A DNA stretch of 64,000 nucleotides from an uncultured Actinomycetes bacterium. GTDB lineage: Bacteria > Actinomycetota > Actinomycetes > Streptosporangiales > Streptosporangiaceae. The notes under the pieces were generated by a model. It had not been told where the DNA came from. It saw only the letters and a list, made by a program, of their open reading frames with translations, and did no database searches. The position numbers were made by a program, and so were the translations under genes. Positions 3,579 through 56,230 of the stretch are shown here, in pieces; positions within the stretch are counted from its first letter, which is position 1, and each line of letters starts with the position of its first letter. The stretch spans positions 6,898 through 70,897 of the forward strand of contig CAVWSA010000025.1 in the NCBI GenBank assembly GCA_963757545.1, in the 5' to 3' direction.

Positions 3579-5496
3579 GGTAGGCCTCCACGACCTCGCT
3601 GCGGCCGCGCAGCTGCTGCATGGTTCCCTCGGCCAGCACCCGTCCCTCGGCCATCACCACCACCGGGTCGCAGAACTCGTCCATGATCGCCAGCTCGTGC
3701 TCCACCATCAGGATGGTCATTCCCTCGGCGCACAGCGCCACCAGTTCCGCGCCGATCCGCCGGGCCAGGTTGGGATGCACCCCGGCCATCGGCTCGTCCA
3801 GCAGCAGCGTGCTGGGCTCGGCCATCAGCGCGCGCATGATCTCCACCAGCCGCCGCTGTCCCCCGCTCAGCTCCCCGGCATAGCTGTTGGCCATGTCCAC
3901 CAGCCCGAACCGCTCCAGCAGCCCGGTGGCCCGCCGCACCGCCGCTTCCTCATCTCCGCGCCAGTACCGCCGCCCGAGCAGCGCCCCGCGCAGCGAATCC
4001 CCCCGGTTCCCGGGTACCGCGGACAGCAAATTCTCCATGACCGTCAGCCGCTTGAACTCCGAGGCCAGCTGAAACGTCCGGACCAGCCCAACCCTTGCCC
4101 TCCTGAACGCCGGCACGGACGTAATGTCGTTGCCCTCGTAAATGATGTGCCCGGACGTGACAGACAACGTTCCGGCCAGCATGGCAAGCAGCGTCGATTT
4201 ACCGGCTCCATTAGGCCCAATCAGCCCGGTCAGCTGCCCCTTCCGCACCACAAAAGACACGCCATCGACGGCCCGGACCCCGCCAAACTCCCGCACCACA
4301 TCACGCGCTTCCAGCATCACGGGCGGCTGACCATGACCAGCCGTGCCATCAGCTGCACCGGGGTTTGCGCCGGAACTGCGCGCACCGCCGTCCGCCGAAG
4401 GCGACGGCGGGCGGGGCGAAAAGCGGGCGTCGCGTGGCCGCCCGTTACCGCCTCTCCTCGCGCGCCTCGGGCCGCTACGATGTCCGCCGGTCGAGGACCC
4501 CCGCCAGCCCGCGCTCGCCGCGCCAGCCGTCGCCGACCCCGCCAGACGAATAAACCGTTTCCGTTCAGGCAGGATCCCCTGCGGCCTAACCCACAGGAAA
4601 ATCACGATCAGCAGCCCGATCGCCACCCATTCCAGAGACGGGATCAGGTTGGGCGGCAGGTTATTGGACGTCGGGATGAACCGGGTGATCTCCTCGAACC
4701 CGACCGGCACCAGAATGGCCCCGAGCACCGCGCCAACATGGTTCCCCGCTCCGCCGATGATGACCGCCGCGAACAGCACGACTGTCTCCGCGTACCCCCA
4801 GGCGGCCGGCGACCAGGTGCTGATGTAGGAGACCAGGATCCCGCCGCTCAGCCCGGCGATGGCCCCGCCGATAACCAGCATCGCGGTGCGCAGCGAGAGC
4901 AGGTTCTTGCCCAGCGAGTCGGCCACCGTGTCGTTGTCCCGCATGGCCCGCAGCGACCGGCCATACGGCGAGAACGTGATCCGCCGGACGAACCAGAACA
5001 CTGCGCCGGTCAGCACGACGGCGCCCGCCCCGAACCCCCACTGGTACCCATTGGACGTGGTGGTGAAGCCGGACGCGGCGAACGGCGCCGGGATCAGCGA
5101 CAGCCCCGCGTCGCCGTTCAGCAGCGGCCGGTAGTTGGTCACCAGCAGGTTGAGCAGTACCGCGGTGACCAGCAGGCCGACCGCGGCGAAGTCGCCGCGC
5201 AGCCGCCGTCCGACCAGGAAGGTGAACGGCAGGGCCAGCACCCCGCCGACCACGGCGGCCCCGATCCAGGGCAGCGGGAACGGCAGGTTCCACCCGCCGA
5301 TGTAGGACTGGAAGCCGCCGTTGGCGTGGTCGCTGGGCAGGGCCAGGATCGCGGCCGCGTAGCCGCCGGCCGCCTGGAAGATGATGAAGCCGAAGTTGGT
5401 CACCCCGGACACCCCGAACTGCTGGCTGAGCCCGAGGCAGGCCATGGCGTCCACCGCCGCGTAGATGATCAGGTTGAGCGTGTAGTAGGAGTTCAT
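3568..5496 (-). CDS. fused Liv-type permease (LivM-like, N-terminal) and ATP-binding protein (LivG-like, C-terminal)
   Basis: Single 642-aa ORF. The N-terminal ~310 aa are polytopic permease (MNSYYTLNLIIYAAVDAMACLGLSQQFG...). A ~77-codon Gly/Arg/Pro/Ser-rich linker follows. The C-terminal part is MLEARDVVREFGGVRAVDGVSF...GPNGAGKST...LSGGQRRLVEI...LLLDEP. Confidence 0.85.
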   Translation of the reverse strand: MNSYYTLNLIIYAAVDAMACLGLSQQFGVSGVTNFGFIIFQAAGGYAAAILALPSDHANGGFQSYIGGWNLPFPLPWIGAAVVGGVLALPFTFLVGRRLRGDFAAVGLLVTAVLLNLLVTNYRPLLNGDAGLSLIPAPFAASGFTTTSNGYQWGFGAGAVVLTGAVFWFVRRITFSPYGRSLRAMRDNDTVADSLGKNLLSLRTAMLVIGGAIAGLSGGILVSYISTWSPAAWGYAETVVLFAAVIIGGAGNHVGAVLGAILVPVGFEEITRFIPTSNNLPPNLIPSLEWVAIGLLIVIFLWVRPQGILPERKRFIRLAGSATAGAASAGWRGSSTGGHRSGPRRARRGGNGRPRDARFSPRPPSPSADGGARSSGANPGAADGTAGHGQPPVMLEARDVVREFGGVRAVDGVSFVVRKGQLTGLIGPNGAGKSTLLAMLAGTLSVTSGHIIYEGNDITSVPAFRRARVGLVRTFQLASEFKRLTVMENLLSAVPGNRGDSLRGALLGRRYWRGDEEAAVRRATGLLERFGLVDMANSYAGELSGGQRRLVEIMRALMAEPSTLLLDEPMAGVHPNLARRIGAELVALCAEGMTILMVEHELAIMDEFCDPVVVMAEGRVLAEGTMQQLRGRSEVVEAYLVG

Positions 5497-9063: not shown

Positions 9064-9855
9064 ATGGGGAACGCTGCCGGGGCCGCCACCCCGTTGCCGG
9101 CCCAGCTGAGATACCGGCTGGCCGAGCTGATCCTGGCCGAGTCGGCCCGGGCAGGCCTGGGACCTGGGTCCCGGCTGCCCACCGAGCGCAAGCTGGCCGC
9201 CGACATGGGCGCCACGCGCACCTCGATCCGGCAGGCGCTGGCCGTGCTCGAGGCGGAGGGCCACATCTCCCGTGAGGTTGGCCGGGGCACCTTCCTGCGC
9301 CGTACGCCGGGACCGGTCGGTGCCGGCGCCGACGGCCCCGGCGACGGGGCCGCCAGCCTGCCGGCGGCGGACGGGGCGGTCGCCGCGCCTGGTGGGCGGC
9401 CGGCCCGCGTCCCGGAGACGGCGGACGGCTTCGCGCCCGCGGATGTGATGACGATCCGGCGGCTGCTCGAACCGCTGGCCATGCCGCTGGTGGTGGCGTG
9501 GGCGACGGCTGCCGACTTCAAGGAGATGGACCGCTGCCTGGCCGGCGGGGGCCAGGCGCGCAGCTACGACGAGTTCGAGAACTGGGATCTCGCCCTGCAC
9601 CGCAGCATCATGGCGGCCAGTCACAGCCCGCTGCTCGGCCAGTTGTACGCGGTCATCGAGTCAGCCCGGCACGGGCACTCCTGGGGTGACATGAAGCGGC
9701 GCAGCGCGTCACAGGAACGCCGCGAGCGGTACCAGGCTGACCACGCCGAACTGGTCGCCGCGCTGCGCGCCCGGGACACCGGCCGGGCCACCGAAGCGAT
9801 GCGCGTCCACCTGGCCCGGGTAAACACCGACCTCTTCGGCGAATCCGCCCGTTAA
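9064..9855 (+). CDS. GntR-family (FadR-subfamily) transcriptional regulator
   Basis: N-terminal wHTH LPTERKLAADMGATRTSIRQALAVLEAEGHISREVGRGTFL. C-terminal FCD-like helices (DLALHRSIMAASHSPLL, ELVAALRARDTGRATEAMRVHL). An unusual ~55-aa Gly/Ala/Pro insert sits between the domains. The start could instead be TTG 9046. Confidence 0.85.
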   Translation: MGNAAGAATPLPAQLRYRLAELILAESARAGLGPGSRLPTERKLAADMGATRTSIRQALAVLEAEGHISREVGRGTFLRRTPGPVGAGADGPGDGAASLPAADGAVAAPGGRPARVPETADGFAPADVMTIRRLLEPLAMPLVVAWATAADFKEMDRCLAGGGQARSYDEFENWDLALHRSIMAASHSPLLGQLYAVIESARHGHSWGDMKRRSASQERRERYQADHAELVAALRARDTGRATEAMRVHLARVNTDLFGESAR

Positions 9856-9865
9856 TTTCGCCGCC

Positions 9866-10031
9866 GAGGCGGGGCGCGCCGCAGGCGTGTCCCCCCGAGC
9901 CGGCGAAAGGGGGTGCCGCGAGCCATCTCGCCGGCCGAGGCGGGGGTGCGCCGAAGGCGTGCCCCCGCCGAGCCGGCGTTCGGCGCGAAGCGGCGATCGG
10001 GGGGCTCCGGGGGGTCGTCCCCCCGGGCTAA
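9866..10031 (+). repeat. GC-rich structured dispersed repeat, family 1, copy A (1.5 tandem units)
   Basis: 9937-10031 is about 90% identical by eye to 54402-54496, and 9866-9912 repeats its first half. It ends with the hairpin CCGGGGGGTCGTCCCCCCGG (10007-10026) plus GCTAAC, abutting the stop codon at 10032. Confidence 0.8.
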
Positions 10032-10655
10032 CTAGTAGCCGCCGCCACTGCCGTAGCCGCCGGAGCCCATCGACGAGCTGGCCTTCGGGCTCGGTGACGA
10101 GCCAGCGCCCATCATCAGCGAGTTGGCCGACACGGCGTCGATCGCGTTCACCCGGAGCGCGTGCCAGACGCCGCCCAGCCCGTTGCCCTTGACCTGGCCC
10201 GGCGCGGTGTCACCGGCATAGGTGTACAGCGGGTGGCCCTTGTAGGTGGCCTGCACGATCCCGCCGGACCGGTTGATGAAGCCGAGCTTGCCGGTCAGCC
10301 GCACTCCCATGGCGGCCATCGGCTTGCCGGTCAGCGGCGGCCAGGCGGTCGCGCAGCCGCCGGTGCAGGCCGAGGTCATCGCGGTGTCCTTGGCGTACCA
10401 GTACAGCGTGAAGCCCTTGGAGTCGGCCAGCACCGGGCCGATGCCCGTCTTGACCTTCATCAGGCTGGCGGTGCTGGACGACATCATCCCGGAGCTACCG
10501 CTCTTGCTCTTGCCGGCCATGCCCGACGTGCTCGACTTGGTGGACATGGACGAACTATTGCCGCTCGCCGAACTGGGCGTAGTGCCGCTGCCACACGCGG
10601 CCAGCAGCAGCGCGGGTATGGCCAGCACCGCGGGCGTCCATCTGCGGTAACGCAT
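10032..10655 (-). CDS. secreted lipoprotein with two COG4315 / 'secreted repeat of unknown function' type repeats
   Basis: Signal MRYRRWTPAVLAIPALLLAACGSG, then a Ser-rich linker. The repeats are GPVLADSKGFTLYWYAKDTAMTSACTGGCATAWPPL and GHPLYTYAGDTAPGQVKGNGLGGVWHAL. Confidence 0.8.
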   Translation of the reverse strand: MRYRRWTPAVLAIPALLLAACGSGTTPSSASGNSSSMSTKSSTSGMAGKSKSGSSGMMSSSTASLMKVKTGIGPVLADSKGFTLYWYAKDTAMTSACTGGCATAWPPLTGKPMAAMGVRLTGKLGFINRSGGIVQATYKGHPLYTYAGDTAPGQVKGNGLGGVWHALRVNAIDAVSANSLMMGAGSSPSPKASSSMGSGGYGSGGGY

Positions 10656-10807
10656 CGAACCTCTCCGCTCATCGAGAAGGGGGCGGACATTCATTCCCCC
10701 TGAGCACGTAACGCTAGATCCGGTCGTTCAGCCGCAGCAGCGGAATGGGCATTACGTCTTTCTTACCGGTGTTCCGGCTGGCCCGTAACTGGGGGTGGCC
10801 GGGCCAC

Positions 10808-11898: not shown

Positions 11899-14208
11899 AT
11901 GAGCACCGAGCAGGCTGAGCGAGACCCGGTGGAGCTGCACTTCGCCGAGATGGCCAGCACCCTCAATGGCCGTGTCAGCCCGGGGGGACGACCCCCTAGC
12001 CCGCTGCGGCCTGCCGCCGCGCTAGCCGACGGCACCGTGCGCCGGCCGCCCGGTGCCGCCCCCATCCGGCCGGGGTCGGCGCTCACCGGCCAGCAGTGCC
12101 TGGACCTGTTCGACGCCCAGCTGGCCAGCCGGCACCTGGACGTGGCCGCGCGCTGGCTGCGCGCCCGTGGCGCCGGCCACTACACGATCGGCTCGTCCGG
12201 GCACGAGGGCAACGCCGGCGTCGCCGCCGCGCTCCGGCTCACCGACCCGGCGCTGCTGCACTACCGGTCCGGGGCGTTCTACCTGGCCCGTGCCCAGCAG
12301 ACCAGCCCGCCGCACGACGGCGTGCGGGATGTGCTGCTCGGCCTGGTGGCCGCCACCGAGGAGCCGATCGCGGGCGGCCGGCACAAGGTGTTCGGCAGCC
12401 AGGCGCTGAACGTGATCCCGCAGACCTCGACCATTGCCTCGCACCTGCCCCGGGCCATGGGGCTGGCCTTCGCCCTGGACCGGGCCGCCCGGCTGGGCCA
12501 GCGCGCGGCCTGGCCGTCCGACGCGATCGTGGTAGCCAGCCTGGGTGACGCGTCGCTGAACCACTCAACCGCGGCCGGGGCGATCAGCACCGCCGCGTAC
12601 TGCGCGTTCCAGCACCTCCCGCTGCCGCTGCTGATGGTGGTCGAGGACAACGGTCTCGGCATCAGCGTGCGGACCCCGCCCGGCTGGGTCGGCACGGCCC
12701 TCAAGGCCGTGCCGGGCATCGGCTACTTCCACGCCGACGGCGCCGACCTGGCCGCGGTGTATGACACCGCGCAGGCCGCCGCGGCCTGGGTCCGTGACCG
12801 GCGCTCCCCCGCGTTCCTGCACCTGGATGTGGTCCGGTTCGGCGGCCACGCGGGCTCGGACGTGGAGAGCGGCTACCGCACCCCGGCCGACCTGGCCGCC
12901 GACCTGGCCGCGGACCCGCTGCTCGGCACCGCGCGGCTGCTGGTCAGCGCCGGGGTGGTCACCCCGGCGGAGGTGATCGCCCGGTACGAGCAGTCCCGTG
13001 CCCACGTGCTCGGCCTGGCCGGCCAGCTGGCTGATGCCCCGCGGCTGGCCTCCGCCGAGCAGGTGATGGCCCCGCTCGCCCCGCACCGGCCCGACCAGGT
13101 TTGGGCCGGCGCATGCCTCAGCGCGGATCCGGCCAGCAGGCATAACGCCTTTGCCGGGCGGCTGCCCGAGCAGGCCGGCGGGCTGACCCTGGCGCAGTCG
13201 GTCAATGCCGCGCTGACCGATGCGCTGGCCGCCCGGCCGGGCATGCTGGTGTTCGGCGAGGACGTGGCCCGCAAGGGCGGCGTGTACGGGGTGACCCGGG
13301 GCCTGCTCGACCGGTTCGGCGCCGCCCGGGTGTTCGACACCCTGCTCGACGAGTCGTCCATCCTCGGCCTGGCCCTGGGCGCGGGGCTGGCCGGGCTGCT
13401 CCCGGTGCCGGAGATCCAGTATCTGGCCTACCTGCACAACGCGGCGGACCAGATCCGGGGCGAGGCGGCCACGCTGTCCTTCTTCTCCCAGGGCCAGTAC
13501 CGCAACCCGATGGTGGTGCGCATCGCCGGGCTGGCCTATCAGCGCGGCTTCGGCGGGCACTTCCACAACGACAACGCGGTGGCCAGCCTGCGTGACATCC
13601 CGGGCCTGCTGATCGCCTGCCCGGCCCGGCCGGACGACGCGGCGGCCATGCTGCGCACCTGCCTGGCCGCCGCGGAAACGGACGGCCGGGTATGCGTGTT
13701 CCTCGAGCCGATCGCGCTGTACCACACCCGGGACCTGGCCGAGCCCGGGGACGGCGGCTGGCTGGCCCGCTATGACTCGCCCGCCGCCTGGCCCGCCGGG
13801 CATGTCCCGGTCGGCCGCGCGTGCTGCCACGGGGACGGGCGTGACCTGACCATCGTCACGTTCGGCAACGGCCTGCCGATGAGCCTGCGGGTGGCCGCCC
13901 GGCTGGCCGCCGACGGCATCGGCTGCCGGGTGCTCGACCTGCGCTGGATCGCGCCGCTGCCCGCCGACGACATCCTGCGCGAGGCCAGCGTCACCGGCCG
14001 GGTGCTGGTGGCCGACGAGACCCGGCGCACCGGCGGGGTCTCCGAGGCGGTGCTCACCGCGCTGGCCGACGCCGGGTTCGGCGGCCGGGTCGCGCGGGTC
14101 ACCAGCGCGGACAGCTTCATCCCGCTGGGTGAGGCGGCCAACCTGGTGCTGCTGTCCGAGGCGGCCATCGAGTCGGCCGCCCGGCGGCTGGCTGCGCTGC
14201 CTGGCTGA
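11899..14208 (+). CDS. thiamine-diphosphate-dependent 2-oxoacid dehydrogenase E1 component, fused alpha/beta subunits
   Basis: The alpha-like half has YTIGSSGHEGNAGVAAAL...SLGDASLNHSTAAGAISTAAY. The beta-like half has LTLAQSVNAALTDALAARPGMLVFGEDVARKGGVYGVTRGL...VFDTLLDESSILGLALGA. No E2 or E3 gene lies nearby. The first ~46 codons contain a repeat hairpin, so GTG 12037 is an alternative start. Confidence 0.85.
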   Translation: MSTEQAERDPVELHFAEMASTLNGRVSPGGRPPSPLRPAAALADGTVRRPPGAAPIRPGSALTGQQCLDLFDAQLASRHLDVAARWLRARGAGHYTIGSSGHEGNAGVAAALRLTDPALLHYRSGAFYLARAQQTSPPHDGVRDVLLGLVAATEEPIAGGRHKVFGSQALNVIPQTSTIASHLPRAMGLAFALDRAARLGQRAAWPSDAIVVASLGDASLNHSTAAGAISTAAYCAFQHLPLPLLMVVEDNGLGISVRTPPGWVGTALKAVPGIGYFHADGADLAAVYDTAQAAAAWVRDRRSPAFLHLDVVRFGGHAGSDVESGYRTPADLAADLAADPLLGTARLLVSAGVVTPAEVIARYEQSRAHVLGLAGQLADAPRLASAEQVMAPLAPHRPDQVWAGACLSADPASRHNAFAGRLPEQAGGLTLAQSVNAALTDALAARPGMLVFGEDVARKGGVYGVTRGLLDRFGAARVFDTLLDESSILGLALGAGLAGLLPVPEIQYLAYLHNAADQIRGEAATLSFFSQGQYRNPMVVRIAGLAYQRGFGGHFHNDNAVASLRDIPGLLIACPARPDDAAAMLRTCLAAAETDGRVCVFLEPIALYHTRDLAEPGDGGWLARYDSPAAWPAGHVPVGRACCHGDGRDLTIVTFGNGLPMSLRVAARLAADGIGCRVLDLRWIAPLPADDILREASVTGRVLVADETRRTGGVSEAVLTALADAGFGGRVARVTSADSFIPLGEAANLVLLSEAAIESAARRLAALPG
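11973..11997. repeat. family-1 hairpin-only copy C (inverted orientation)
   Basis: GTCAGCCCGGGGGGACGACCCCCT matches the reverse complement of the 3' end of copies A and B (GTTAGCCCGGGGGGACGACCCCCC). Confidence 0.6.
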
Positions 14209-46311: not shown

Positions 46312-48036
46312 TCAGTACATTTCGATGCAGTCGTAGCTGACGGCCGGGCTGAGCCAGTCGCTCAGCGCGCTGGACCCGCTGATCACGGTGATCGTCATCG
46401 TGTTGCTGCCGGCCAGGAACGCGCTGGCCGGCACCGGGTAGCTGTACAGCGTGTTGTTGCCCCGGTAGGTGCCGATGGTCAGGCTGCGCGACGACGGCTG
46501 GCTGGACGGCGACGGCGCGGCCGACGTCCAGTTGTTCACGGTGATCTGCGGCCGTCCGCCGGCGTACGCGGCGGTGATCCCGATCCGCACGGTGCGCGCC
46601 GCGACCTGGCTGGACGACAGGGTGAACTTCACCGTGGTCGGGTTGTTCACGTCCTTGAACTGGTAGGCCGGGAAGTCCGCCGCCGAGCTGCTGCCCACCG
46701 TGTAGGTGACCGGCCCCCAGCTCGCCATCCGGCTGTCCGACGGGTGCATCCAGGTCAGGTTGGCCCAGTTCAGGAAGCCGCTCGGGGTGCCGTCCCAGGT
46801 GCCGATCCGGAACACCGGCGCGGCCGGGGTAAGCCAGGCCGAGTCGATGTTCTGCCCGGTCGTCTCGGCCCCGGCGGAGACCGTCACGGTCCGGGTGGCG
46901 ACGGCCAGCTCGCCCTGGTACAGCGTCTGGGTGTACGTGCCCGGCTTCATCAGCGGGCTGGCGAAGTCACCGTTGGACTGCGGCGTGGCCCAGTACTGCG
47001 CGGCCGGGTTGGCCCAGCCCACCGTGACCGCGGCGCCGGCGGTCACCCCCGAGGCCGCGCCGACCACATAGCCGCGGCCGGCCGGGGCGACCGAGCCGGT
47101 GAAACCGAAGTCGTACATAAAGCTCATGTCCGGCGCGGCCGGCGCGCTGGTCCCGCCGACCAGCAGCGCGTACGGCCCGTACAGCACGCCCAGCCGCTGC
47201 GCCTCGGTCTGGTTGTGCGCCGACCACAGGTAGTTGTACAGCTGGCTGTCCGTGCTGCCCTGCTGCTCGATGTCCCGGAAGAACGGCCCGCCCGCGCTGC
47301 TCTCCCGGTTGCCGTAGGCCATCCACACGCCGATGCCGCTGCCGGTGACACCGCGCACGGTCAGGTTCATCGCCTGCCGGTTCGAGTAGTACTTGGACCG
47401 GGTCTGCCCGTCCAGCAGGTAGATGTCGGTGGACTCGATCGCCGTCCCGCCGTTGATCTCGGCTGGGGTGTACACCGTGCTGATCACGCTGGCGTTCAGC
47501 CGGCTGATCCAGCGCAGCTCGCCCGCCCCGGCCGAGTTGACGTACGTCGCCAGGTAGATGTTGTTCTGGCCGCTCACCGCGACCAGGTAGTGGATCAGCG
47601 TGCCGCTGCCATACCAGTCGGTCACCGACTCGGTGATCACGATGTAGTTGCCGGTCTGCGTCGCGGTGACCGTGGCCCCGGCGCCCAGGCCCGACTCCAC
47701 CTGCGAGAACGAGGTCTGGTCCTGCAGCTCGGTGCCGTTGTAGCTGAGCGAGGTCATGTCGCCGTCCGACTGGCTGATCTTGAACGTGAGCCCGGCCCCG
47801 GTGCTCACCGTGTAGTAGCCGCCGCTGCTGGTGTAGCCGAACGCGGTGGCCGCGCTGGCCGGCGCGATCCGGCCCGCCACCGCGTCCGCCGCGGTGCCGG
47901 CCAGCCCGAGGGCCAGGCCGCTGGCGGCGGCGCCAGTGAGGAACCGGCGCCGCCCCAGGCGGCGGGGCCCGGGCGATGCGCTCTGTTGGTCCGGGGGGAC
48001 GACCCCCCTGGACCCCCCGGGAAAGCTGAACGTCAT
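46312..48036 (-). CDS. rhamnogalacturonan lyase (PL4 family) with a Tat-type signal
   Basis: RRRFLTGAAASGLALGLAGTAADA. The overall resemblance to RhgB-type lyases (FGYTSSGGYYTVSTGAGLTFKISQSDGDMTSLSYNGTELQ..., C-terminal beta-sandwich modules) is judged from memory. ATG 48036 is preceded by GGGGAGGGG. Confidence 0.75.
   Translation of the reverse strand: MTFSFPGGSRGVVPPDQQSASPGPRRLGRRRFLTGAAASGLALGLAGTAADAVAGRIAPASAATAFGYTSSGGYYTVSTGAGLTFKISQSDGDMTSLSYNGTELQDQTSFSQVESGLGAGATVTATQTGNYIVITESVTDWYGSGTLIHYLVAVSGQNNIYLATYVNSAGAGELRWISRLNASVISTVYTPAEINGGTAIESTDIYLLDGQTRSKYYSNRQAMNLTVRGVTGSGIGVWMAYGNRESSAGGPFFRDIEQQGSTDSQLYNYLWSAHNQTEAQRLGVLYGPYALLVGGTSAPAAPDMSFMYDFGFTGSVAPAGRGYVVGAASGVTAGAAVTVGWANPAAQYWATPQSNGDFASPLMKPGTYTQTLYQGELAVATRTVTVSAGAETTGQNIDSAWLTPAAPVFRIGTWDGTPSGFLNWANLTWMHPSDSRMASWGPVTYTVGSSSAADFPAYQFKDVNNPTTVKFTLSSSQVAARTVRIGITAAYAGGRPQITVNNWTSAAPSPSSQPSSRSLTIGTYRGNNTLYSYPVPASAFLAGSNTMTITVISGSSALSDWLSPAVSYDCIEMY
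47989..48023. repeat. family-1 hairpin copy D, inside the 5' coding end of the PL4 gene
   Basis: CCGGGGGGACGACCCCCC (47991-48008) followed by TGGACCCCCCGGG. It is translated as ...GGSRGVVPPD... in the Tat n-region. Confidence 0.55.
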
Positions 48037-51554: not shown

Positions 51555-51650
51555 TTTGCGCCTCCGGGGGGCTGGACCCGCCGACTTCCCTCCTCGCTCG
51601 TTCCTTGCTCGTCAGTCCAGTCAGCGGCGCCCCCCTTCGGCGCGGGGCCG
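51555..51650 (+). repeat. GC-rich dispersed repeat, family 2, copy E1
   Basis: Its reverse complement aligns at roughly 85-90% (by eye) with 52755-52860. It contains the CE8 stop codon (51621-51623) and the last ~10 codons. Confidence 0.7.
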
Positions 51651-54377
51651 CCATCCGCCCAGGTAGTCAGCCACCGTGTACTGCGCCGCCTGCGCCGCGG
51701 TGAGCTGCGGCACGTCCGCGGCCACGACGGCGCCCGGCCCGGCGTTCTGGTACTCGTAGAACCGGGCGTCCTGCCACGGGAACGGCGGGCTGGTCCAGTT
51801 CTGCCACTGCTCCGGGTTGATCGCCGCGGGCAGGTAGGTGTCCCGGATGGTGATCTGGCCTACCGGGTTGGTCACCCCGGTATGCCGCCACGGCCGGCCC
51901 AGGTAGTAGCTGGCCGCGGCCAGGTTCCCGGGGCTGTTGATGATGCGGCTGTTGGTGATCAGGTAGCCATACGGCTGCTCCAGCCCGGTGTCCGGGGCAC
52001 TTACCGTGCCCCCCGGGTGGCCCAGAATGTCGATGGTGTCGTGGTCGAACACGGCCGTGCCCGAGCCACACAGGAAGTCCACCTGGCCGGAGATGTAGTC
52101 GTCCAGGTAGAGCTGCCGGGCGGGCGGCGGCGTGGTGCTGCCCGGCGGCGACGTGGCGGGCGGCCCGCCCGGGGCGAAGCACTCGGCCGGGGTGAACGGG
52201 TCCGCGTACGAACTGGCGAACACCGTGTCCTGGATGCCGAGCAGCCGGTCCCGGGCGAACACCACCCGGTCGGCCACCGTCTTGACCGCCACCGCCTGCG
52301 GCGAGGTGATCTGCGGGTTGGCCGCCGGGTCGAAGGAGTTCTGCACGGTGATGCCGTAGGCGGCGAACCCGTTGCCGGCCACCGACAGGGTGGCGCTGCA
52401 GTCGGTGCCGTACTGGTTGCCGTTGGGCGCGACCGTGCCGTGCGCGATGTCGTCCACCAGGACGACGTCGCGCGGGTTCCCAGTCGCCCCGGCCAGCGTG
52501 ATGTCCGGCTCGGAGGCGGGCACGTAGATCTGGCCCCAGTAAGTGCCCGGGTCGATCCGGATCGTCACCGGCCCGCTACCCGGCGGGATCGCGTCCAGCG
52601 CTGCCTGCACCGAGGCGAACGTCCCGGGCCGACCGCTCTGCGACACCACCAGCAGGTGGTGCCTCCCCGCGACGCCGGCCCAGGCCGGCCCCTGCGCCGC
52701 GAGGAGGGTCAATAAGGCCGCCGCGCCAAAGGCGCGCGCCGCCGTCTGGACTGCCGCGCCGAAGGGGGGCGCCGCCGACTGGACTGAGGAGCGCGGAGCG
52801 AGGAACGAGTGACAAGCGACGAGGGAAGACGGCGGGTCCAAGCCCCCCGGAGGCGCAAAGCAAGCAGAGTACGAGCGAACAAGCGACGAGGGAAGACAGC
52901 GCAGTGAAGGGGGAATGGGGAGGTGGGCGGGGCGCCGGAGGCGCCAAATCATGACTGTCACCGGGGTGCCGCCGACGGTCACGTCCTCGACGACCAGGTT
53001 GGAGATGTACTGGGCCGAGTTGGCCACGGTGGACGTGGTAATGGTGAGGTCGTCCAGGGTGACGGTGCCGACCGGGTCGGTGGCCGACGCGCCGACGATC
53101 GACCACACTCCCTCGCAACTGCCCACCGTCCAGTCAGCCAGCGTGATGCCGGTGATGTCGGGCGGGAAGTCCCCGGTCTGCCCGCTGTAGTTGCCCTGGA
53201 TCAGCAGCAGCGGGCCGCCGACCGTGCCGGCGTTGATCCGGTACACGTTGCTGTTGAGCGCGTAGCCGCCGCGCAGCGTGTTGGTCTTGATCCGGTGCCC
53301 GGCCTGCAGGTTGGCGCTGTTCAGGGTCAGGTCGCGGGCGTAGACGTTCCGCACCCCGCCGGTCATCTCGCTGCCGATGGTGATGCCGCCGTGCCCGTTG
53401 GCGAAGTTGCAGTTCTGGATGACCACGTTCTGGCTGGGCACGTTGACCCGGCGGCCGTCGGCGTCCCGGCCGGACTTGATCGCGATGCAGTCGTCGCCGG
53501 TGTTGAACGTGACCGAGTCGATGACCACCCCGTCGCAGGACTCCGGGTCGCAGCCGTCGGTGTTCGGCCCGGACGAGTTGATGCTCACGCCCTCGACCGT
53601 GACGTTGCTGCACAGGTTCGGGTTCAGGTGCCAGAACGGCGAGTTGATGAACGTGACGCCCTGGAGCAGCACGGTGTCGGTCAGGAACGGCTGGATCATC
53701 TGCGGCGGCAGGAAGTGCCCGGCGCCAAACACCCGCTGGGCGACCGGCACGTTGTCGTCGGCCATCTGCTCCAGTAGAGAGAAATCGGCGGTCTCCATGT
53801 CCTTCCAGTTCCACCAGTGGTTTGCGTCGGCCTGCCCGTTCAGCGTGCCCTGGCCGGTGATGGCGATGTTCCGCTGGCCGTAGGAGTAGACCGGCGGCGA
53901 GTAGTTCATCAGCTCGATGCCCTGCCACCGGGTGAGCACCACCGGCAGGTAGGCGTTCGGGTCCTGGCTGAACAGGATGACCGAGTCCGCGTTGGCCAGG
54001 TGCAGATCGACGTTGCTGAGCAGGTGGATGGCCCCGGTGAAGAACTGCCCGGACGGGACGATCACGTGCCCGCCGCCGGCCCGGTGGCAGGCGGCGATGG
54101 CCGCGGCGAACGCGGCCGTGCAGTCGGTGGTCCCGTCCCCGACGGCGCCGAACCGGGTGACCGGGAAGAACCGGCGGGGAAACCATGGACGGCGCACCGA
54201 GGCGACGATGCGGTCAGCGGCCCGGTCCATGGCCGACCAGGGACCAGACGGGCGGCTGGGCCGCGCGGTGGCAGCGCTAACATTTGCCGCGCCGGCCCAC
54301 AGCGGGCTGGTTAAGGCTCCGGCTCCGGCCAGTGCCGAGTAGCGGAGCATGCTGCGGCGGTTGAGGTCCTTCGACAT
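51621..54377 (-). CDS. single 918-aa ORF joining a Tat-signal GH28 exo-polygalacturonase-like module (54377 to ~52955) and a CE8 pectin methylesterase module (~52670 to 51621) through ~95 repeat-encoded codons
   Basis: GH28 part: MSKDLNRRSMLRYSALAGAGAL, NTDGCDP, GDDCIAIKSG, GHGGITIGSE, RIKT. CE8 part: QAVAVK, GIQDTVF, DFLCG, YYLGRPW. No in-frame stop lies between them. ATG 54377 is preceded by GGAGG. Confidence 0.75.
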   Translation of the reverse strand: MSKDLNRRSMLRYSALAGAGALTSPLWAGAANVSAATARPSRPSGPWSAMDRAADRIVASVRRPWFPRRFFPVTRFGAVGDGTTDCTAAFAAAIAACHRAGGGHVIVPSGQFFTGAIHLLSNVDLHLANADSVILFSQDPNAYLPVVLTRWQGIELMNYSPPVYSYGQRNIAITGQGTLNGQADANHWWNWKDMETADFSLLEQMADDNVPVAQRVFGAGHFLPPQMIQPFLTDTVLLQGVTFINSPFWHLNPNLCSNVTVEGVSINSSGPNTDGCDPESCDGVVIDSVTFNTGDDCIAIKSGRDADGRRVNVPSQNVVIQNCNFANGHGGITIGSEMTGGVRNVYARDLTLNSANLQAGHRIKTNTLRGGYALNSNVYRINAGTVGGPLLLIQGNYSGQTGDFPPDITGITLADWTVGSCEGVWSIVGASATDPVGTVTLDDLTITTSTVANSAQYISNLVVEDVTVGGTPVTVMIWRLRRPAHLPIPPSLRCLPSSLVRSYSACFAPPGGLDPPSSLVACHSFLAPRSSVQSAAPPFGAAVQTAARAFGAAALLTLLAAQGPAWAGVAGRHHLLVVSQSGRPGTFASVQAALDAIPPGSGPVTIRIDPGTYWGQIYVPASEPDITLAGATGNPRDVVLVDDIAHGTVAPNGNQYGTDCSATLSVAGNGFAAYGITVQNSFDPAANPQITSPQAVAVKTVADRVVFARDRLLGIQDTVFASSYADPFTPAECFAPGGPPATSPPGSTTPPPARQLYLDDYISGQVDFLCGSGTAVFDHDTIDILGHPGGTVSAPDTGLEQPYGYLITNSRIINSPGNLAAASYYLGRPWRHTGVTNPVGQITIRDTYLPAAINPEQWQNWTSPPFPWQDARFYEYQNAGPGAVVAADVPQLTAAQAAQYTVADYLGGWRPRAEGGRR
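52716..52948 (-). repeat. GC-rich dispersed repeat, family 2, composite copy E2 (inverted relative to E1, with internal duplications and a family-1-like end module)
   Basis: A 33-nt unit GCCGCGCCAAAGGCGCGCGCCGCCGTCTGGACT / GCCGCGCCGAAGGGGGGCGCCGCCGACTGGACT occurs in tandem. ACAAGCGACGAGGGAAGAC occurs twice. GGCGGGGCGCCGGAGGCGCC (52926-52945) resembles hairpin 1 of family 1. Confidence 0.7.
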
Positions 54378-54401
54378 TGCGGTTACCTCCATCTCGTTGG
54401 C

Positions 54402-54496
54402 GAGGCGGGGCGCGCCGGAGGCGTGTCCCCGCCGAGCCGGCGATCGGCGCGAAGCGGCGATCGGGGGGTTCCGGGGGGTCGTCCCCCCGGGCTAAC
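54402..54496 (+). repeat. GC-rich structured dispersed repeat, family 1, copy B
   Basis: Full sequence: GAGGCGGGGCGCGCCGGAGGCGTGTCCCCGCCGAGCCGGCGATCGGCGCGAAGCGGCGATCGGGGGGTTCCGGGGGGTCGTCCCCCCGGGCTAAC. It fills the 119-nt gap between the dehydratase stop (54497) and the GH28 start (54377). Confidence 0.8.
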
Positions 54497-56230
54497 TCAG
54501 CGGGGGTCGGGCTCGGGATTCCGGCCGGCCCTGGCCAGGAACCCGAAATCACAGCCCTTGTCCGCCTGGGTCACGTGCTCGCTGTACAGCGCGCCGTAAC
54601 CACGCTCATACCGGGGCGGCGGCGGCCGCCAGGCGGCGCGCCGCCGGTGCAGTTCCGCGTCGCTCACCTCCAACCGGAGCGCCCGCTCCGGCACGTCGAG
54701 AGTGATCAGGTCGCCGGTGCGGGCCAGCGCGAGCGGGCCCCCGACGTAGGACTCCGGCGCCACGTGCAGCACGCAGGCCCCGTAGCTGGTGCCGCTCATC
54801 CGGGCGTCACAGATGCGCACCATGTCCCGGACCCCCTGGGCCAGCAGGTAGTCCGGGATGGGCAGCATGCCGTACTCCGGCATGCCCGGGCCGCCGAGCG
54901 GGCCGGTGTTCCGCAGCACCAGCACCGAGTCGGCGGTGATGCCCAGCGCCGGGTCGTCGATGGTGTCCCGGATCTGCTGGTAACTGTCGAACACCACGGC
55001 CGGCCCGGTGTGCTTGAGCAGCGCCGGGTCGGCCGCGATGTGCTTGATCACGGCGCCGTCCGGCGCCAGGTTGCCCCGCAGCACCGCGAGCCCGGCTTCC
55101 GGCGCCAGCGCGGTACTGGCGTTACGGATCACGTCCTCGTTGCCGACCTCAGCCCCGGCCAGCCCGTCAGCGAGGGAACGGCCGGTCACCGTCATCCGGT
55201 CGGGGTGCAGCGCGCCGGGGACCTTGGCCAGTTCGGCCAGCAGTGCGCGCAGGCCGCCGGCGTAGTAGAAGTCCTCCATCAGATATTTGCCGCCGGGGCG
55301 GATGTTGGCCAGCACCGGGACCCGGCGGGCGATCTCGTCGAAGTCGTCCAGGGACAGCGGCACGCCACAGCGCCCGGCCATGGCGATGAGGTGGATGACC
55401 GCGTTGGTCGACCCGCCCAGGGCGAGCACGGTGGCCACCGCGTCCTCGAACGCCTCGGCGGTGAGGATCCGGTCCGGGGTGAGGTTCTCCCAGGCCATCT
55501 CCACGATCCGGCGGCCGGTCGCGGTGGCCATCCGGTAGTGCGCCGAATCCACCGCCGGGATGGACGCCGCGCCGGGCAGCGTCATGCCCAGCGCCTCGGC
55601 CGCCGATGTCATGGTGGACGCGGTGCCCATCGTCATGCAGTGCCCAGGCGAGCGGGCGATGCCGTCGGCCAGGTCGGCCATCTCGCAGTCGCCGATCAGC
55701 CCGGCCCGCTTGTCGTCCCAGTACTTCCACAGATCGGTGCCGCTGCCCAGGGTGCCGCCGCGGTAGTTGCCGCGCAGCATCGGCCCGGCCGGCAGGTAGA
55801 TGGCCGGGATGCCCGCGCTGGCCGCGCCCATCAGCAGCGCCGGGGTGCTCTTGTCACAGCCGCCCATCAGCACCGCGCCGTCGGCCGGGTAGGACCGGAG
55901 CAGTTCCTCGGTGTCCATGGCCAGCAGGTTGCGGTACAGCATCGGGGTCGGCTTCTGGAACGTCTCGGACAGCGAGGCCACGCCGAACTCGGCCGGGAAA
56001 CCGCCCGCCTCCCAGATGCCCCGCCTGACCTGCTCGGCCCGTTCCCGCAGGTGCATGTGGCACGGGTTCAGCTCGGACCAGGTGTTGACGATCGCGATGA
56101 CCGGCTTGCCCCGATAGTCCACGGGGTCCGCGCCGAGCTGGCGCATCCGGGTGCCGTGGCTGAACGCCCGCATCCCGTCGCCGCCGAACCAGCGGTCGCT
56201 GCGGAGCGCTGACCCGGGAGGGCGGCTCAC
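54497..56230 (-). CDS. IlvD/Edd-family sugar-acid dehydratase
   Basis: LRSDRWFGG...NTWSELNPCHMHL...MGGCDKSTPALLMGA...SPGHCMTMGTAST...DARMSGTSYG. GTGA overlap with kdgK. Confidence 0.9.
   Translation of the reverse strand: MSRPPGSALRSDRWFGGDGMRAFSHGTRMRQLGADPVDYRGKPVIAIVNTWSELNPCHMHLRERAEQVRRGIWEAGGFPAEFGVASLSETFQKPTPMLYRNLLAMDTEELLRSYPADGAVLMGGCDKSTPALLMGAASAGIPAIYLPAGPMLRGNYRGGTLGSGTDLWKYWDDKRAGLIGDCEMADLADGIARSPGHCMTMGTASTMTSAAEALGMTLPGAASIPAVDSAHYRMATATGRRIVEMAWENLTPDRILTAEAFEDAVATVLALGGSTNAVIHLIAMAGRCGVPLSLDDFDEIARRVPVLANIRPGGKYLMEDFYYAGGLRALLAELAKVPGALHPDRMTVTGRSLADGLAGAEVGNEDVIRNASTALAPEAGLAVLRGNLAPDGAVIKHIAADPALLKHTGPAVVFDSYQQIRDTIDDPALGITADSVLVLRNTGPLGGPGMPEYGMLPIPDYLLAQGVRDMVRICDARMSGTSYGACVLHVAPESYVGGPLALARTGDLITLDVPERALRLEVSDAELHRRRAAWRPPPPRYERGYGALYSEHVTQADKGCDFGFLARAGRNPEPDPR

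Follow-up and report, generated by a model that had tools for sequence, protein, structure and literature searches.

What kind of element ends where genes stop? In the 64,000-nucleotide stretch of DNA analyzed here (the window), two copies of a structured repeat that we call family 1, copies A and B, run up to the stop codons of minus-strand genes, and related hairpins are found inside the E1 and PL4 genes. We asked what the repeat consists of, how it is distributed and which of the known kinds of bacterial element it resembles.

Copies A and B consist of three hairpins and a tail that meets a stop codon

Copy A comprises two modules on the plus strand. M1 (9936–9977), delimited by HMM coordinates, folds and pair counts over 108 copies, contains an outer stem, tandem G.A pairs, an inner stem with G.T wobbles and a bulge, and a C-GAA-G triloop. 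M2 (9979–10031; nhmmer M2 match of 52.7 bits, supported by folds) contains a central GCGAAGC mini-hairpin, a G-run, the hairpin H2 (CCGGGGGG-TCGT-CCCCCCGG, core 10009–10024) and the tail GGGCTAA. The tail adjoins the TAG stop (10032–10034, minus strand) of a Lipoprotein_15-repeat gene (10032–10694) whose end, CTAGTAGCC, is kept in relatives that do not carry the repeat. An extra M1, a stem-enclosed imperfect hairpin, is located upstream on the same strand (9860–9904; nhmmer M1 match of 31 bits) and starts 4 nt past the TAA stop (9853–9855) of a gene identified by Pfam as GntR/FCD. In copy B, the HMM coordinates place M1 at 54396–54442 on the plus strand, 19 nt from the ATG (54377) of a GH28-pectinesterase ORF and just past its GGAGG ribosome-binding site. 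M2 (54444–54495, plus strand; HMM and folds) again consists of the central hairpin, H2 (core 54473–54488) and a tail, GGGCTAAC, which adjoins the TGA stop (54497–54499, minus strand) of a dihydroxy-acid dehydratase-family gene (54497–56230). The position of this stop is conserved in relatives without the repeat (site D14).

Both copies are present as described in an earlier sequence-only reading of the window, which estimated their identity at about 90%; we find 92%. Two of its structural assignments change. The supposed extra half unit at 9866–9912 turns out to be a second, complete M1, and the supposed direct repeat of CGGCGATCGG represents the two arms of the third, central hairpin with its GAA triloop, CGATCG being its own reverse complement. 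The placement of GCTAAC flush against both stops is correct for copy B, where it abuts TCA (54497–54499) exactly, but not for copy A, where the last C of GCTAAC is the first base of the stop CTA (10032–10034), giving a one-base overlap.

The unit is a mosaic that folds better on one strand

Across the family, the unit is a mosaic of about 100 nt made up of M1, the central mini-hairpin and H2, followed by the tail GGGCTA(A/G)CACnG. M1 is a long imperfect hairpin of about 22 bp with a GNA triloop, replaced in some units by a shorter alternative first hairpin. The central mini-hairpin has the form GCGNAGC (family consensus CGTTCGGCGCGNAGCGGCGATCG) and H2 the form G6-TCGT-C6, with one to five H2 copies per unit. 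Units are ordered head to tail as M1 + n x M2, tandem H2 arrays are direct, and within arrays C-TA-G marks the bounds of each unit. Terminal inverted repeats are lacking, and the 5′ leader of 19–33 nt between the left stop and M1 shows no conservation.

Pairing in M1 is well supported, with 85% of pair cells canonical over 108 copies compared to 34–48% in slid controls, and compensatory changes at pairs 15-36 (GC/AT/GT), 19-31 (GT/CG) and 5-46 (CG/TA). G.T pairs are plentiful (98 of the 108 copies at one pair) while A.C pairs are nearly absent, and the plus-strand fold is more stable than the minus-strand fold by 5–16 kcal/mol. All four folds have z-scores between −3.3 and −5.5. The strand-specific G.T pairs together with the GNA triloops suggest a folded single strand as the recognition target. 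Orthologous copies are 91.5–97% conserved compared to 83–94% for their coding flanks in five of five same-architecture pairs. This may reflect purifying selection for function instead of selfishness, though concerted evolution or recent insertion would account for it as well.

Family 1 is dispersed through a genus and docks on stop codons

To determine the extent of the family, we searched the 6.7-Mb, 72% GC metagenome-assembled genome (MAG) of the uncultured soil actinomycete that contains the window (G000). Genome-wide nhmmer returned 122 M1 and 171 M2 matches, which merge into about 174 loci, two of them copies A and B. The pattern G5N4C5 occurs 244 times in this genome and C5N4G5 only 7 times. 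Family 1 is thus a short GC-rich palindromic unit with many copies per genome, as REPs are described (PMC3733652), and the dispersed REP-like repeat postulated from the window alone is real. All 18 genomes sampled from the genus contain it, and matches to a pattern scan fall only in uncultured soil MAGs labeled Actinomycetes / Streptosporangiaceae. At the family level, a threshold of E <= 1e-30 proved overly stringent; at E <= 1e-8, 17 of the 79 other genera in the family also contain the H2-plus-tail module, and M1 is essentially restricted to the genus.

The tabulated distances to stops substantiate the strong preference for gene boundaries proposed earlier. At 34 of 54 loci the tail lies within 10 nt of the stop of the converging gene, compared to 12 of 66 loci at which the head is that close to a stop (Fisher p = 6e-7). 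Both counts are based on a crude codon-bias gene caller for which stops are reliable and starts are not. Tail-to-stop offsets cluster at +2/+3 and at +7 to +9, and the CTA of the tail is itself often the stop codon of the converging gene. Of 20 docked stops, 12 (60%) are TAG compared to 20% genome-wide (p = 1e-4), and at offsets 2–3 the figure rises to 8 of 9. The same docking is seen in 80 loci of other MAGs of the genus, with a sharp mode at +3, so that what was noticed at two stop codons holds for the family. In this, too, family 1 conforms to REPs as described, which are found mainly behind ORFs whose neighbors are convergent or unidirectional and carry a tag able to supply a TAG stop.

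Copies are gained and lost at small sites and are translated inside genes

Alignment of orthologous sites across five related species revealed sites where some species carry the repeat (filled) and others do not (empty). The empty sites correspond to convergent genes that overlap or are 0–3 nt apart, with sequences such as CTGCGTTAATCG, TGATTA, TCCTAACCG and TAGGCGTCA. Different species carry fills of opposite orientation at D1, D2, D5, D12, seg5, seg6 and seg7. The site of copy B is filled in G016 and empty in G002, G014 and G047, and the G002 orthologue of locus A carries three M1 modules. Several fills, among them seg10 and D1, are not clean insertions but take the place of 6–11 nt seen at the empty site. 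At D9, CTAG precedes and CTAA follows the fill, and the corresponding empty site contains CTAA only once; most other filled/empty pairs show either no target duplication or a replacement of 6–11 nt. Sister species thus differ by gains and losses of copies, identical small sites have been filled independently in both orientations, and the ancestral, empty sites are 0–3-nt gaps or overlaps between convergent stops or else tolerant protein linkers and termini. No mobilizing enzyme, clean TSD or TIR was found, and the family may therefore be called mobile only on the strength of differences in presence/absence and orientation.

About a quarter of the loci lie within ORFs and are translated. In the window, an H2 with a tail remnant lies reversed and in frame (..SPGGRPPSP..) at 11973–11997 on the minus strand, within the N-terminal linker of a fused E1 alpha/beta gene. 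The inverted H2 previously noted at the 5′ end of E1 is thus a genuine copy (H2 itself at 11982–11996) located inside the ORF. The linker holding it is hypervariable. Of 12 aligned genomes, the six closest share a conserved start ATG (11899), ribosome-binding motif and opening stretch of ~20 codons, all still recognizable in the others. At the same spot, G002 and G018 carry a fuller M2 while G046 and G014 carry none. The H2 reported in the Tat signal of the PL4 rhamnogalacturonan lyase was also confirmed and extends further than stated, comprising the 3′ part of M2 (G-run, H2 and tail; 47986–48019, minus strand) over codons 6–16. The in-frame insertion to which it belongs measures 45 nt; G000 and G047 have it, and G046 and G002 do not. 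Elsewhere, an in-frame fill splits the Aminotran_5 domain of a cysteine desulfurase into two stretches at a site that is empty in four relatives, and a gltB linker has received a clean in-frame insertion. As in RPEs, family 1 elements are therefore inserted cleanly and in frame into otherwise conserved, apparently functional genes (cysteine desulfurase, gltB, PL4 and E1) and are missing from orthologues.

Terminator, transposon and riboswitch readings of family 1

A position directly behind stop codons could indicate a selected RNA module, with hairpins functioning as factor-independent terminators or as barriers to 3′ exonucleases. H2 is a very stable GC hairpin located 0–8 nt past stops, the G.U-type asymmetry points to a structure formed by a single strand, and orthologous copies are better conserved than their flanks. 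At locus A, the ancestral terminator hairpin of G032, G047 and G002 has been lost and no structure other than the repeat remains between the convergent genes. However, copies in tandem gene contexts show no preferred orientation (44 loci co-oriented and 32 anti-oriented to transcription), and docked copies are antisense to the best-folding strand, presenting the adjacent mRNA with the weaker, C.A-mismatched one. Intrinsic terminators combine a GC hairpin with a U tract in one orientation; judged by sequence, family 1 would not qualify, as H2 is not followed by a run of T on either strand and both orientations are represented among the copies. The translated copies inside ORFs, the 30 loci in divergent promoter regions of G000 and the sister species with empty sites also argue against such a role, which we regard as improbable. 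The dedicated 3′-UTR module that had been suggested as one possibility is accordingly not supported by the two orientations, the antisense docking, the in-frame translation and the filled/empty sites. As general background, REPs of E. coli that lie within ~15 nt of a stop reduce expression via ribosome stalling.

A MITE moved in trans by a DDE transposase targeting TA/CTAG (IS630/Tc1) or YTAR (IS5) would explain landing on stops in a different way, since at 72% GC such targets are nearly confined to stop codons. The CTAG/CTAA at a fixed offset in the tail, the C-TA-G bounds of array units and the bracketed fill at D9 are consistent with this. In addition, G000 contains an intact IS630-like IS, present as two identical copies that both sit in C-TA-G, as well as IS4/IS5-type transposases. 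Yet the element possesses no terminal inverted repeats, and its ends match the IS630 TIR GTGTCGCGTG at only 4–5 of 10 positions. Most empty/filled pairs show no TA or YTAR duplication, the intragenic targets at seg10, seg1 and seg7 contain no TA, the conserved CACnG beyond CTAR is part of the element and not of the target, and no composite or parent element was found. We give this explanation little credence, and the strict MITE offered in the sequence-only reading is not borne out given that it would call for TIRs, a clean target duplication and a parent IS.

Several candidate sources of mobility were considered and rejected. The IS630-like IS was discarded as a parent based on a TIR unlike the element ends, and TIRs were not detectable for the other DDE_3 genes. 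Pairs of loci 0.3–4 kb apart enclose housekeeping genes with no nuclease or transposase among them, leaving no composite or autonomous element. Gene families recurring next to copies, considered as leads to a cognate enzyme, are only common paralogues (ABC ATPases, LuxR regulators and permeases). A model of units bounded by TA or CTAG fits the arrays and D9 and fails at most empty sites.

Classical REPs or REPINs are moved by RAYT (TnpA-REP, a Y1 HUH transposase), and CTAG/TTAG could play the part of the GTAG tag. The combination of a tetranucleotide tag and a GC palindrome mirrors GTAG REPs, and strand-specific hairpins with GNA loops would suit ssDNA recognition. Against this, neither G000 nor 38 of the 39 genomes searched in the genus contain PF01797, although 14 of those 38 have a completeness of 90% or more and control genomes were positive; a TnpB partner was not found and the units are not inverted doublets. 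Orientation shows no replication-strand bias either, following local GC skew at 82 of 174 loci and the gene-strand majority at 87 of 174. The RAYT reading is largely refuted and very improbable.

Guanidine-II (mini-ykkC) riboswitch hairpins, suggested by the GC stem and ACGA loop of the H2 reverse complement and by sub-threshold RF01068 matches in arrays (19–26 bits, E = 0.01–0.7), are for practical purposes refuted, as the best match reaches 26.2 bits compared to a gathering score of 32, and copies are found behind stops, within ORFs and in either orientation, and not in 5′ leaders of guanidine-exporter genes. An Rfam scan of the window gave no match at gathering thresholds or at E <= 1.

The motif CGCCGNAGGSG, which had been taken to link family 1 to a second repeat family and to the LivM/LivG linker hairpin, occurs 11 times in the window compared to 3.1 expected. 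It represents only a generic C-GNA-G triloop cap common to different hairpins, and the proposed kinship is not supported.

Family 1 is a new family within a known kind of bacterial repeat

Family 1 adds a new family to a kind of bacterial repeat that is already known and does not amount to a new kind of element. It shares with GTAG and CGTC REPs (Di Nocera et al., 2013; PMC3733652) and with the REP/BIME elements of enterobacteria a short GC-rich palindrome, tagged at one end by a conserved tetranucleotide and present in hundreds of copies mostly downstream of genes, between convergent or unidirectional ORFs. As in GTAG REPs, which supply TAG stops, lie between convergent or unidirectional ORFs and also occur inside ORFs (PMC3733652), the tag often provides a TAG stop and some copies lie wholly within ORFs, which reduces the novelty of these traits. 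Like BIMEs it forms mosaic combinations with other motifs, and like CGTC REPs (PMC3733652) it lacks a dedicated transposase. It differs in its tag (CTAG/CTAA, or CTAG/TTAG on the other strand, instead of GTAG or CGTC; an analogue of GTAG without being the same), in being a ~100-nt mosaic of three hairpins with direct H2 arrays in place of inverted doublets, and in its host, an uncultured genus of high-GC actinomycetes; the survey of PMC3733652 makes no mention of Actinobacteria. REPIN-RAYT systems of Pseudomonas and E. coli are similarly dispersed hairpin repeats with strand-specific single-strand structure and lineage-specific families, but family 1 occurs in a genus devoid of RAYT in 38 of 39 genomes and forms no inverted REP doublets.

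Two other kinds of repeat invite comparison. Rickettsia RPEs (PMC3733652, PMC3184786), as described there, are palindromic repeats lying in frame in functional genes, as seen here for gltB, cysteine desulfurase, E1 and the Tat signal peptide, whereas family 1 is unrelated in sequence and host phylum, mostly extragenic and stop-tagged at one end. MIRUs (Supply et al., 1997, as summarized in PMC3184786) also have an actinobacterial host, 40–100-bp GC-rich tandem units in intergenic regions of operons, unit ends overlapping adjacent gene ends and empty/filled sites between species. Family 1 has tandem arrays and a tail overlapping stops, with no consistent unit ORF or start-codon overlap; its sequence is unrelated, and the tetranucleotide direct repeats at filled sites and the frame coupled to flanking genes that this source gives for MIRUs are not seen. 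The guanidine-II riboswitch (RF01068) is matched by the stem and loop on the H2 reverse complement and differs in score, genomic context and orientation, as set out above.

Taken together, family 1 is likely to belong to the REP/BIME/RPE kind, as a mosaic palindromic repeat that is lineage-specific and non-coding, and it probably represents selfish or formerly selfish DNA. Such an element would enter, or would survive only, exactly at gene ends. Its CTAG/CTAA tail can be read as a stop on both strands, and a gene whose own stop was displaced would end within the tail, typically as ..nnG TGY TAG; otherwise the tail would be joined straight to the stop that the gene already had, in some cases following small deletions at CTA(G) microhomology. 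Docking on stops would thus be due to entry or survival at gene ends combined with a tail that bears stops on both strands. In the other two frames and in protein linkers, the GC-rich, stop-free body would be translated, giving rise to the in-frame intragenic copies. The mobilizing or copying machinery, presumably not a RAYT, would recognize a single DNA strand folded as ssDNA, and any effect as a terminator or as a barrier at RNA 3′ ends would be a by-product.

A further, rather unlikely possibility is that non-RAYT machinery recognizing the folded strand through its G.T hairpins and GNA triloops actively targets translation stops and gene junctions. If true, this would account for the repeated hits in two orientations on the same 0–3-nt gaps in sister species, for the rewritten C-terminal codons and stop of a neighboring gene and for the occasional replacement of an ancestral terminator.

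Implications for actinomycete genomes

For the annotation of these soil-actinomycete MAGs, the quarter or so of copies that overlap ORFs give rise to false fusions, false N- and C-terminal extensions, ambiguous starts and sub-threshold look-alikes of guanidine-II riboswitches. The filled/empty polymorphism between species that are 87–91% identical provides useful lineage markers in Microflora Danica and other soil MAG sets. More generally, family 1 illustrates that a tagged palindromic repeat can rewrite gene ends, adding a C-terminal ..Cys-stop or Pro/Gly/Arg-rich extensions, and can sit in essential enzymes and replace intrinsic terminators, in genomes without a RAYT gene. Such repeats are poorly described in this phylum, and family 1 sharpens the question of how REPs spread without RAYT, as in the case of CGTC REPs.

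Family 1 is a three-hairpin repeat with many copies in the host genome

Both copies of family 1 that the sequence-only reading placed in the window, at 9937-10031 (copy A) and 54402-54496 (copy B), are present; in HMM coordinates copy A spans 9936-10031, with an additional module ahead of it at 9860-9904, and copy B spans 54396-54495. The two copies are 92% identical. The folds of each copy bear out hairpins 1 and 2 of the proposed three-part make-up, but the 'direct repeat' CGGCGATCGG x2 between them is a third hairpin, its two units forming the arms of a central stem because CGATCG is self-complementary. The first hairpin (M1) has a CGCCGG/CCGGCG outer stem followed by a C-G pair, tandem G.A pairs and an inner stem with two G.T wobbles, one bulged base and a C-GNA-G triloop cap. 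The central hairpin has a GCGNAGC core, the second hairpin (H2) reads CCGGGGGG-TCGT-CCCCCCGG, and the tail 3' of H2 is GGGCTA(A/G)C; central hairpin, H2 and tail together are referred to as M2. All folds are far more stable than shuffled controls (z = -3.3 to -5.5), and the written strand is more stable than its complement by 5-7 kcal/mol as DNA and 11-16 kcal/mol as RNA. A strong hairpin is also found in the LivM/LivG linker region (window 4385-4410, CCGCCGTCCGCC-GAA-GGCGACGGCGG). Its suggested link to family 1 reduces to a shared C-GAA-G triloop cap, and the M1 and M2 models give no match there.

Using iterated nhmmer searches of the host MAG (G000; 6.66 Mb, 72% GC, 47 contigs, 80% complete), we identified 165 whole-unit matches, 108 of them near full length. 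The window corresponds to positions 6898-70897 of contig C25 of this MAG. Separate models returned 122 M1 and 171 M2 matches, giving a merged total of 174 loci, and the pattern G5N4C5 occurs 244 times compared with 7 times for C5N4G5. Architectures comprise M1+M2 (74 loci), M2-type only (38), M1 only (17), H2 only (16) and arrays of up to M1 + 5 x M2. Most 'M2-only' loci bear another, shorter first hairpin, GCGGCGGC-TT-GCCGCCGC, and a third unit type is present besides these two. Family 1 is therefore a mosaic superfamily with H2 and the tail in common. Elsewhere in this assembly, parts of contig C28 that carry CO-dehydrogenase/xanthine-dehydrogenase-like genes and their neighbours recur on C22 and C33, with a garbled C-terminus in the C22 copy; the likely cause is redundancy at strain level or long-read indels in the MAG.

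All 18 sampled genomes of the genus contain the full unit. All matches of an exact scan for the M1 pattern were to MAGs carrying the labels uncultured Actinomycetes (MFD isolates), Actinomycetes RYN_230 and Streptosporangiaceae SMAG. Within the same GTDB family, 17 of the 79 other genera contain the H2-tail module (query 55/71-109), at ca. 81-100% identity (E <= 1e-8); M1 is essentially restricted to the genus.

The M1 hairpin is maintained on one strand

Standard pairs occupy 85% of M1 pair cells across 108 copies compared with 34-48% in slid controls in which the 3' partner was shifted by 1-3 columns. Compensatory variation is observed at pairs 15-36 (GC 55, AT 29, GT 22), 19-31 (GT 64, CG 36) and 5-46 (CG 60, TA 19, TG 11). 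G.T pairs are plentiful, reaching 98 of 108 copies at pair 17-33, and there are few A.C pairs, so the hairpin is upheld on one strand only. Loops are GNA triloops, with the N of GCGNAGC free among A, G, C and T. Mini-hairpins of the d(GCGAAGC) type are exceptionally stable in DNA, and the resemblance of GCGNAGC to them is a hint, not proof, that the unit is recognized as single-stranded DNA. In 5/5 orthologous pairs of the same architecture the element is more conserved than its flanks (91.5-97% vs 83-94% identity). Constraint on structure, concerted evolution of the copies and recent insertion of nearly identical copies would each fit this.

The tail of family 1 docks onto stop codons

Genes were called with our own codon-bias ORF caller (6,205 in the host MAG), for which stops are unambiguous and starts approximate. 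Loci lie in tandem (76), divergent (30) and convergent (22) intergenic regions and inside called ORFs (45). The stop-codon docking claimed for copies A and B generalizes: at 34/54 loci whose tail faces a converging gene, the stop falls between -4 and +10 nt from the tail, whereas only 12/66 loci have a co-oriented stop within 10 nt of the head (tail vs head, Fisher p = 6e-7). With the final C of H2 as origin, stops peak at +2/+3, positions at which CTA of the tail itself serves as stop, and again at +7 to +9, where tail CTAAY is joined straight to the native stop, for example in copies A and B. The tail of copy B abuts the stop TCA (54497-54499) exactly as proposed; that of copy A instead overlaps the stop by one base, the final C of GCTAAC being the first base of the minus-strand CTA (10032-10034). 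Docked genes end in TAG in 12/20 cases compared with 20% genome-wide (p = 1e-4), including 8/9 at offsets 2-3. Docking is repeated in other MAGs of the genus, where among 80 8-kb loci 37 H2 hairpins have a converging stop within 400 nt; 16 of these lie within 10 nt of it, most often (nine cases) at exactly +3. Among the host loci, orientation shows no link to transcription direction (44 vs 32), to GC skew or to gene-strand bias.

Orthologous sites hold fills of differing architecture and orientation

Five sister species (87-91% DNA identity) were compared. Locus A lies between convergent GntR and Lipoprotein_15 genes, where sister genomes, with the exception of G018, carry a classical bidirectional terminator hairpin (CCCCTCCCGG..CCGGGAGGGG, also written AAAACCCCTCCCGGG-AGCAGG-CCGGGAGGGGTTC). 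The repeat is missing from this locus in G032, G047 and G018, represented by an M1-type piece only in G034, and present in G002 as three M1 + M2 units directly after the left TAA, with the terminator kept. In the host the terminator is lost and the repeat alone is left (window 9856-10031), its tail fused to the right-hand stop at a GGCTA microhomology. G046 and G014 hold another, unrelated insert of ca. 80 nt at the same spot. The copy B site is empty in G002, G014 and G047 (spacer ca. 40 nt) and filled in G016.

Empty sites of docked loci consist of convergent genes 0-3 nt apart or overlapping (D2, CTGCGTTAATCG; D4, TGATTA; D9, TCCTAACCG; D1, TAGGCGTCA). The same docked sites hold fills of differing architecture in different species, and fills of opposite orientation occur between species at docked loci D1, D2, D5 and D12 and at intragenic loci seg5, seg6 and seg7. 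In docked fills the tail points toward the gene end each time and the native stop is often swapped for ..nnG TGY TAG; at D7 a tail-supplied stop changes PERA* to PERPC*. Shared-site fills are far above chance expectation given ca. 170 loci and several thousand intergenic sites, which suggests a preference for certain sites, a very small number of permissive ones, or both. No consistent target duplication is seen at filled/empty junctions, and some fills replace 6-11 nt.

Copies inside genes are real and mostly near ORF ends

Filled/empty alignments across relatives confirm the hairpin-only copies noted inside the 5' ends of E1, a fused alpha/beta gene, and PL4, a rhamnogalacturonan-lyase gene with a Tat signal. 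E1 starts at ATG 11899 with the upstream motif GACCTACCGTAGAGGAATG, and its first ca. 20 codons are conserved in the closest 6 of 12 genomes and recognizable in the rest; the H2 piece sits in a hypervariable linker, in which G002 and G018 have fuller M2 units and G046 and G014 have none. In the more distant genus members G044 and G017 (L028, L029) the E1 N-terminal linker carries, entirely in frame, forward-oriented units in tandem that belong to a variant family (ATTTCCCTGGCCACGGGAGGCGCCCCCGGAGGGGGTGTCTCGCGGGGCC + H2 + CTAGCAGAG). In PL4 of G000 and G047 an extra 45 nt follow codon 2 in frame; G046 and G002 lack this insertion. Also in the window, at 51621-54377 (minus strand), is one 918-aa ORF with GH28 and pectinesterase Pfam domains, whose true start is ATG 54377 (GGAGG ribosome-binding site, Tat-type signal), not ATG 54392.

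A clean insertion in a cysteine desulfurase gene (seg10), filled in G000 and G014 and empty in G002, G046, G032 and G047, cuts the Aminotran_5 domain into two Pfam stretches. The gltB site, between the central and FMN domains, is empty in G014; G046 has only H2 there, G047 a double H2 and G000 the full unit. At this linker (G000 C32:373890-373975; L031, L033), G032 and G002 hold a different repeat, GGCGCGCCAGCTGGGCGCGAGTCTCTGGCTGG, in tandem in G002, where a 27-nt tandem repeat coding (A/P)GEPR lies just upstream; the linker is an insertion hot spot for several repeat families. Overall, 33/45 in-ORF loci lie no more than 30 codons from an ORF end. On each strand a single frame of the tail contains a stop, so that the other two frames continue through the GC-rich body, which is free of stops.

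Family 1 is related in kind to tagged REPs

PF01797, the RAYT/IS200 Y1 transposase family, is absent from G000 and from 38/39 genus genomes, with control genomes positive, and TnpB was not found. No composite element, repeat-bracketed gene or recurrent neighbouring gene family was found. Transposases of the host are of IS4/IS5 and IS630 type. An IS630-like IS of 1,142 bp, present outside the window in two identical copies (C23:296704-297845 and C38:232743-233884) with a TA duplication in a CTAG target, was apparently active recently; it was rejected as parent of family 1, its TIR GTGTCGCGTG being unlike the family ends.

Family 1 has no Rfam match in the window, even at E <= 1. Because H2 reads ACGA in its loop on the complementary strand, H2 arrays give sub-threshold Guanidine-II matches (<=26.2 bits vs a gathering score of 32; G000 C26:45257-45489 and C39:357925-358000; L204, L208), and such arrays are likely to cause false riboswitch calls in related genomes.

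Of the readings first offered, a REP-like element stands, and a MITE or 3'-UTR module is not supported. Among described systems, the tagged REPs reported by Di Nocera et al. (PMC3733652) come closest. REPs sit mainly between unidirectional and convergent ORFs, with some within ORFs, and CGTC REPs lack a dedicated transposase (PMC3733652). Family 1 also has in-frame insertion in common with Rickettsia palindromic elements and gene-end overlap in common with mycobacterial interspersed repetitive units (PMC3184786). Stop docking is real, but an already known property of tagged REPs; in family 1 it is accounted for by a CTAG/CTAA tail that brings a stop with it, together with insertion where gene junctions are extremely tight. 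Family 1 is a new family of a known kind, with a new tag, a three-hairpin mosaic structure, an actinomycete host and no RAYT.
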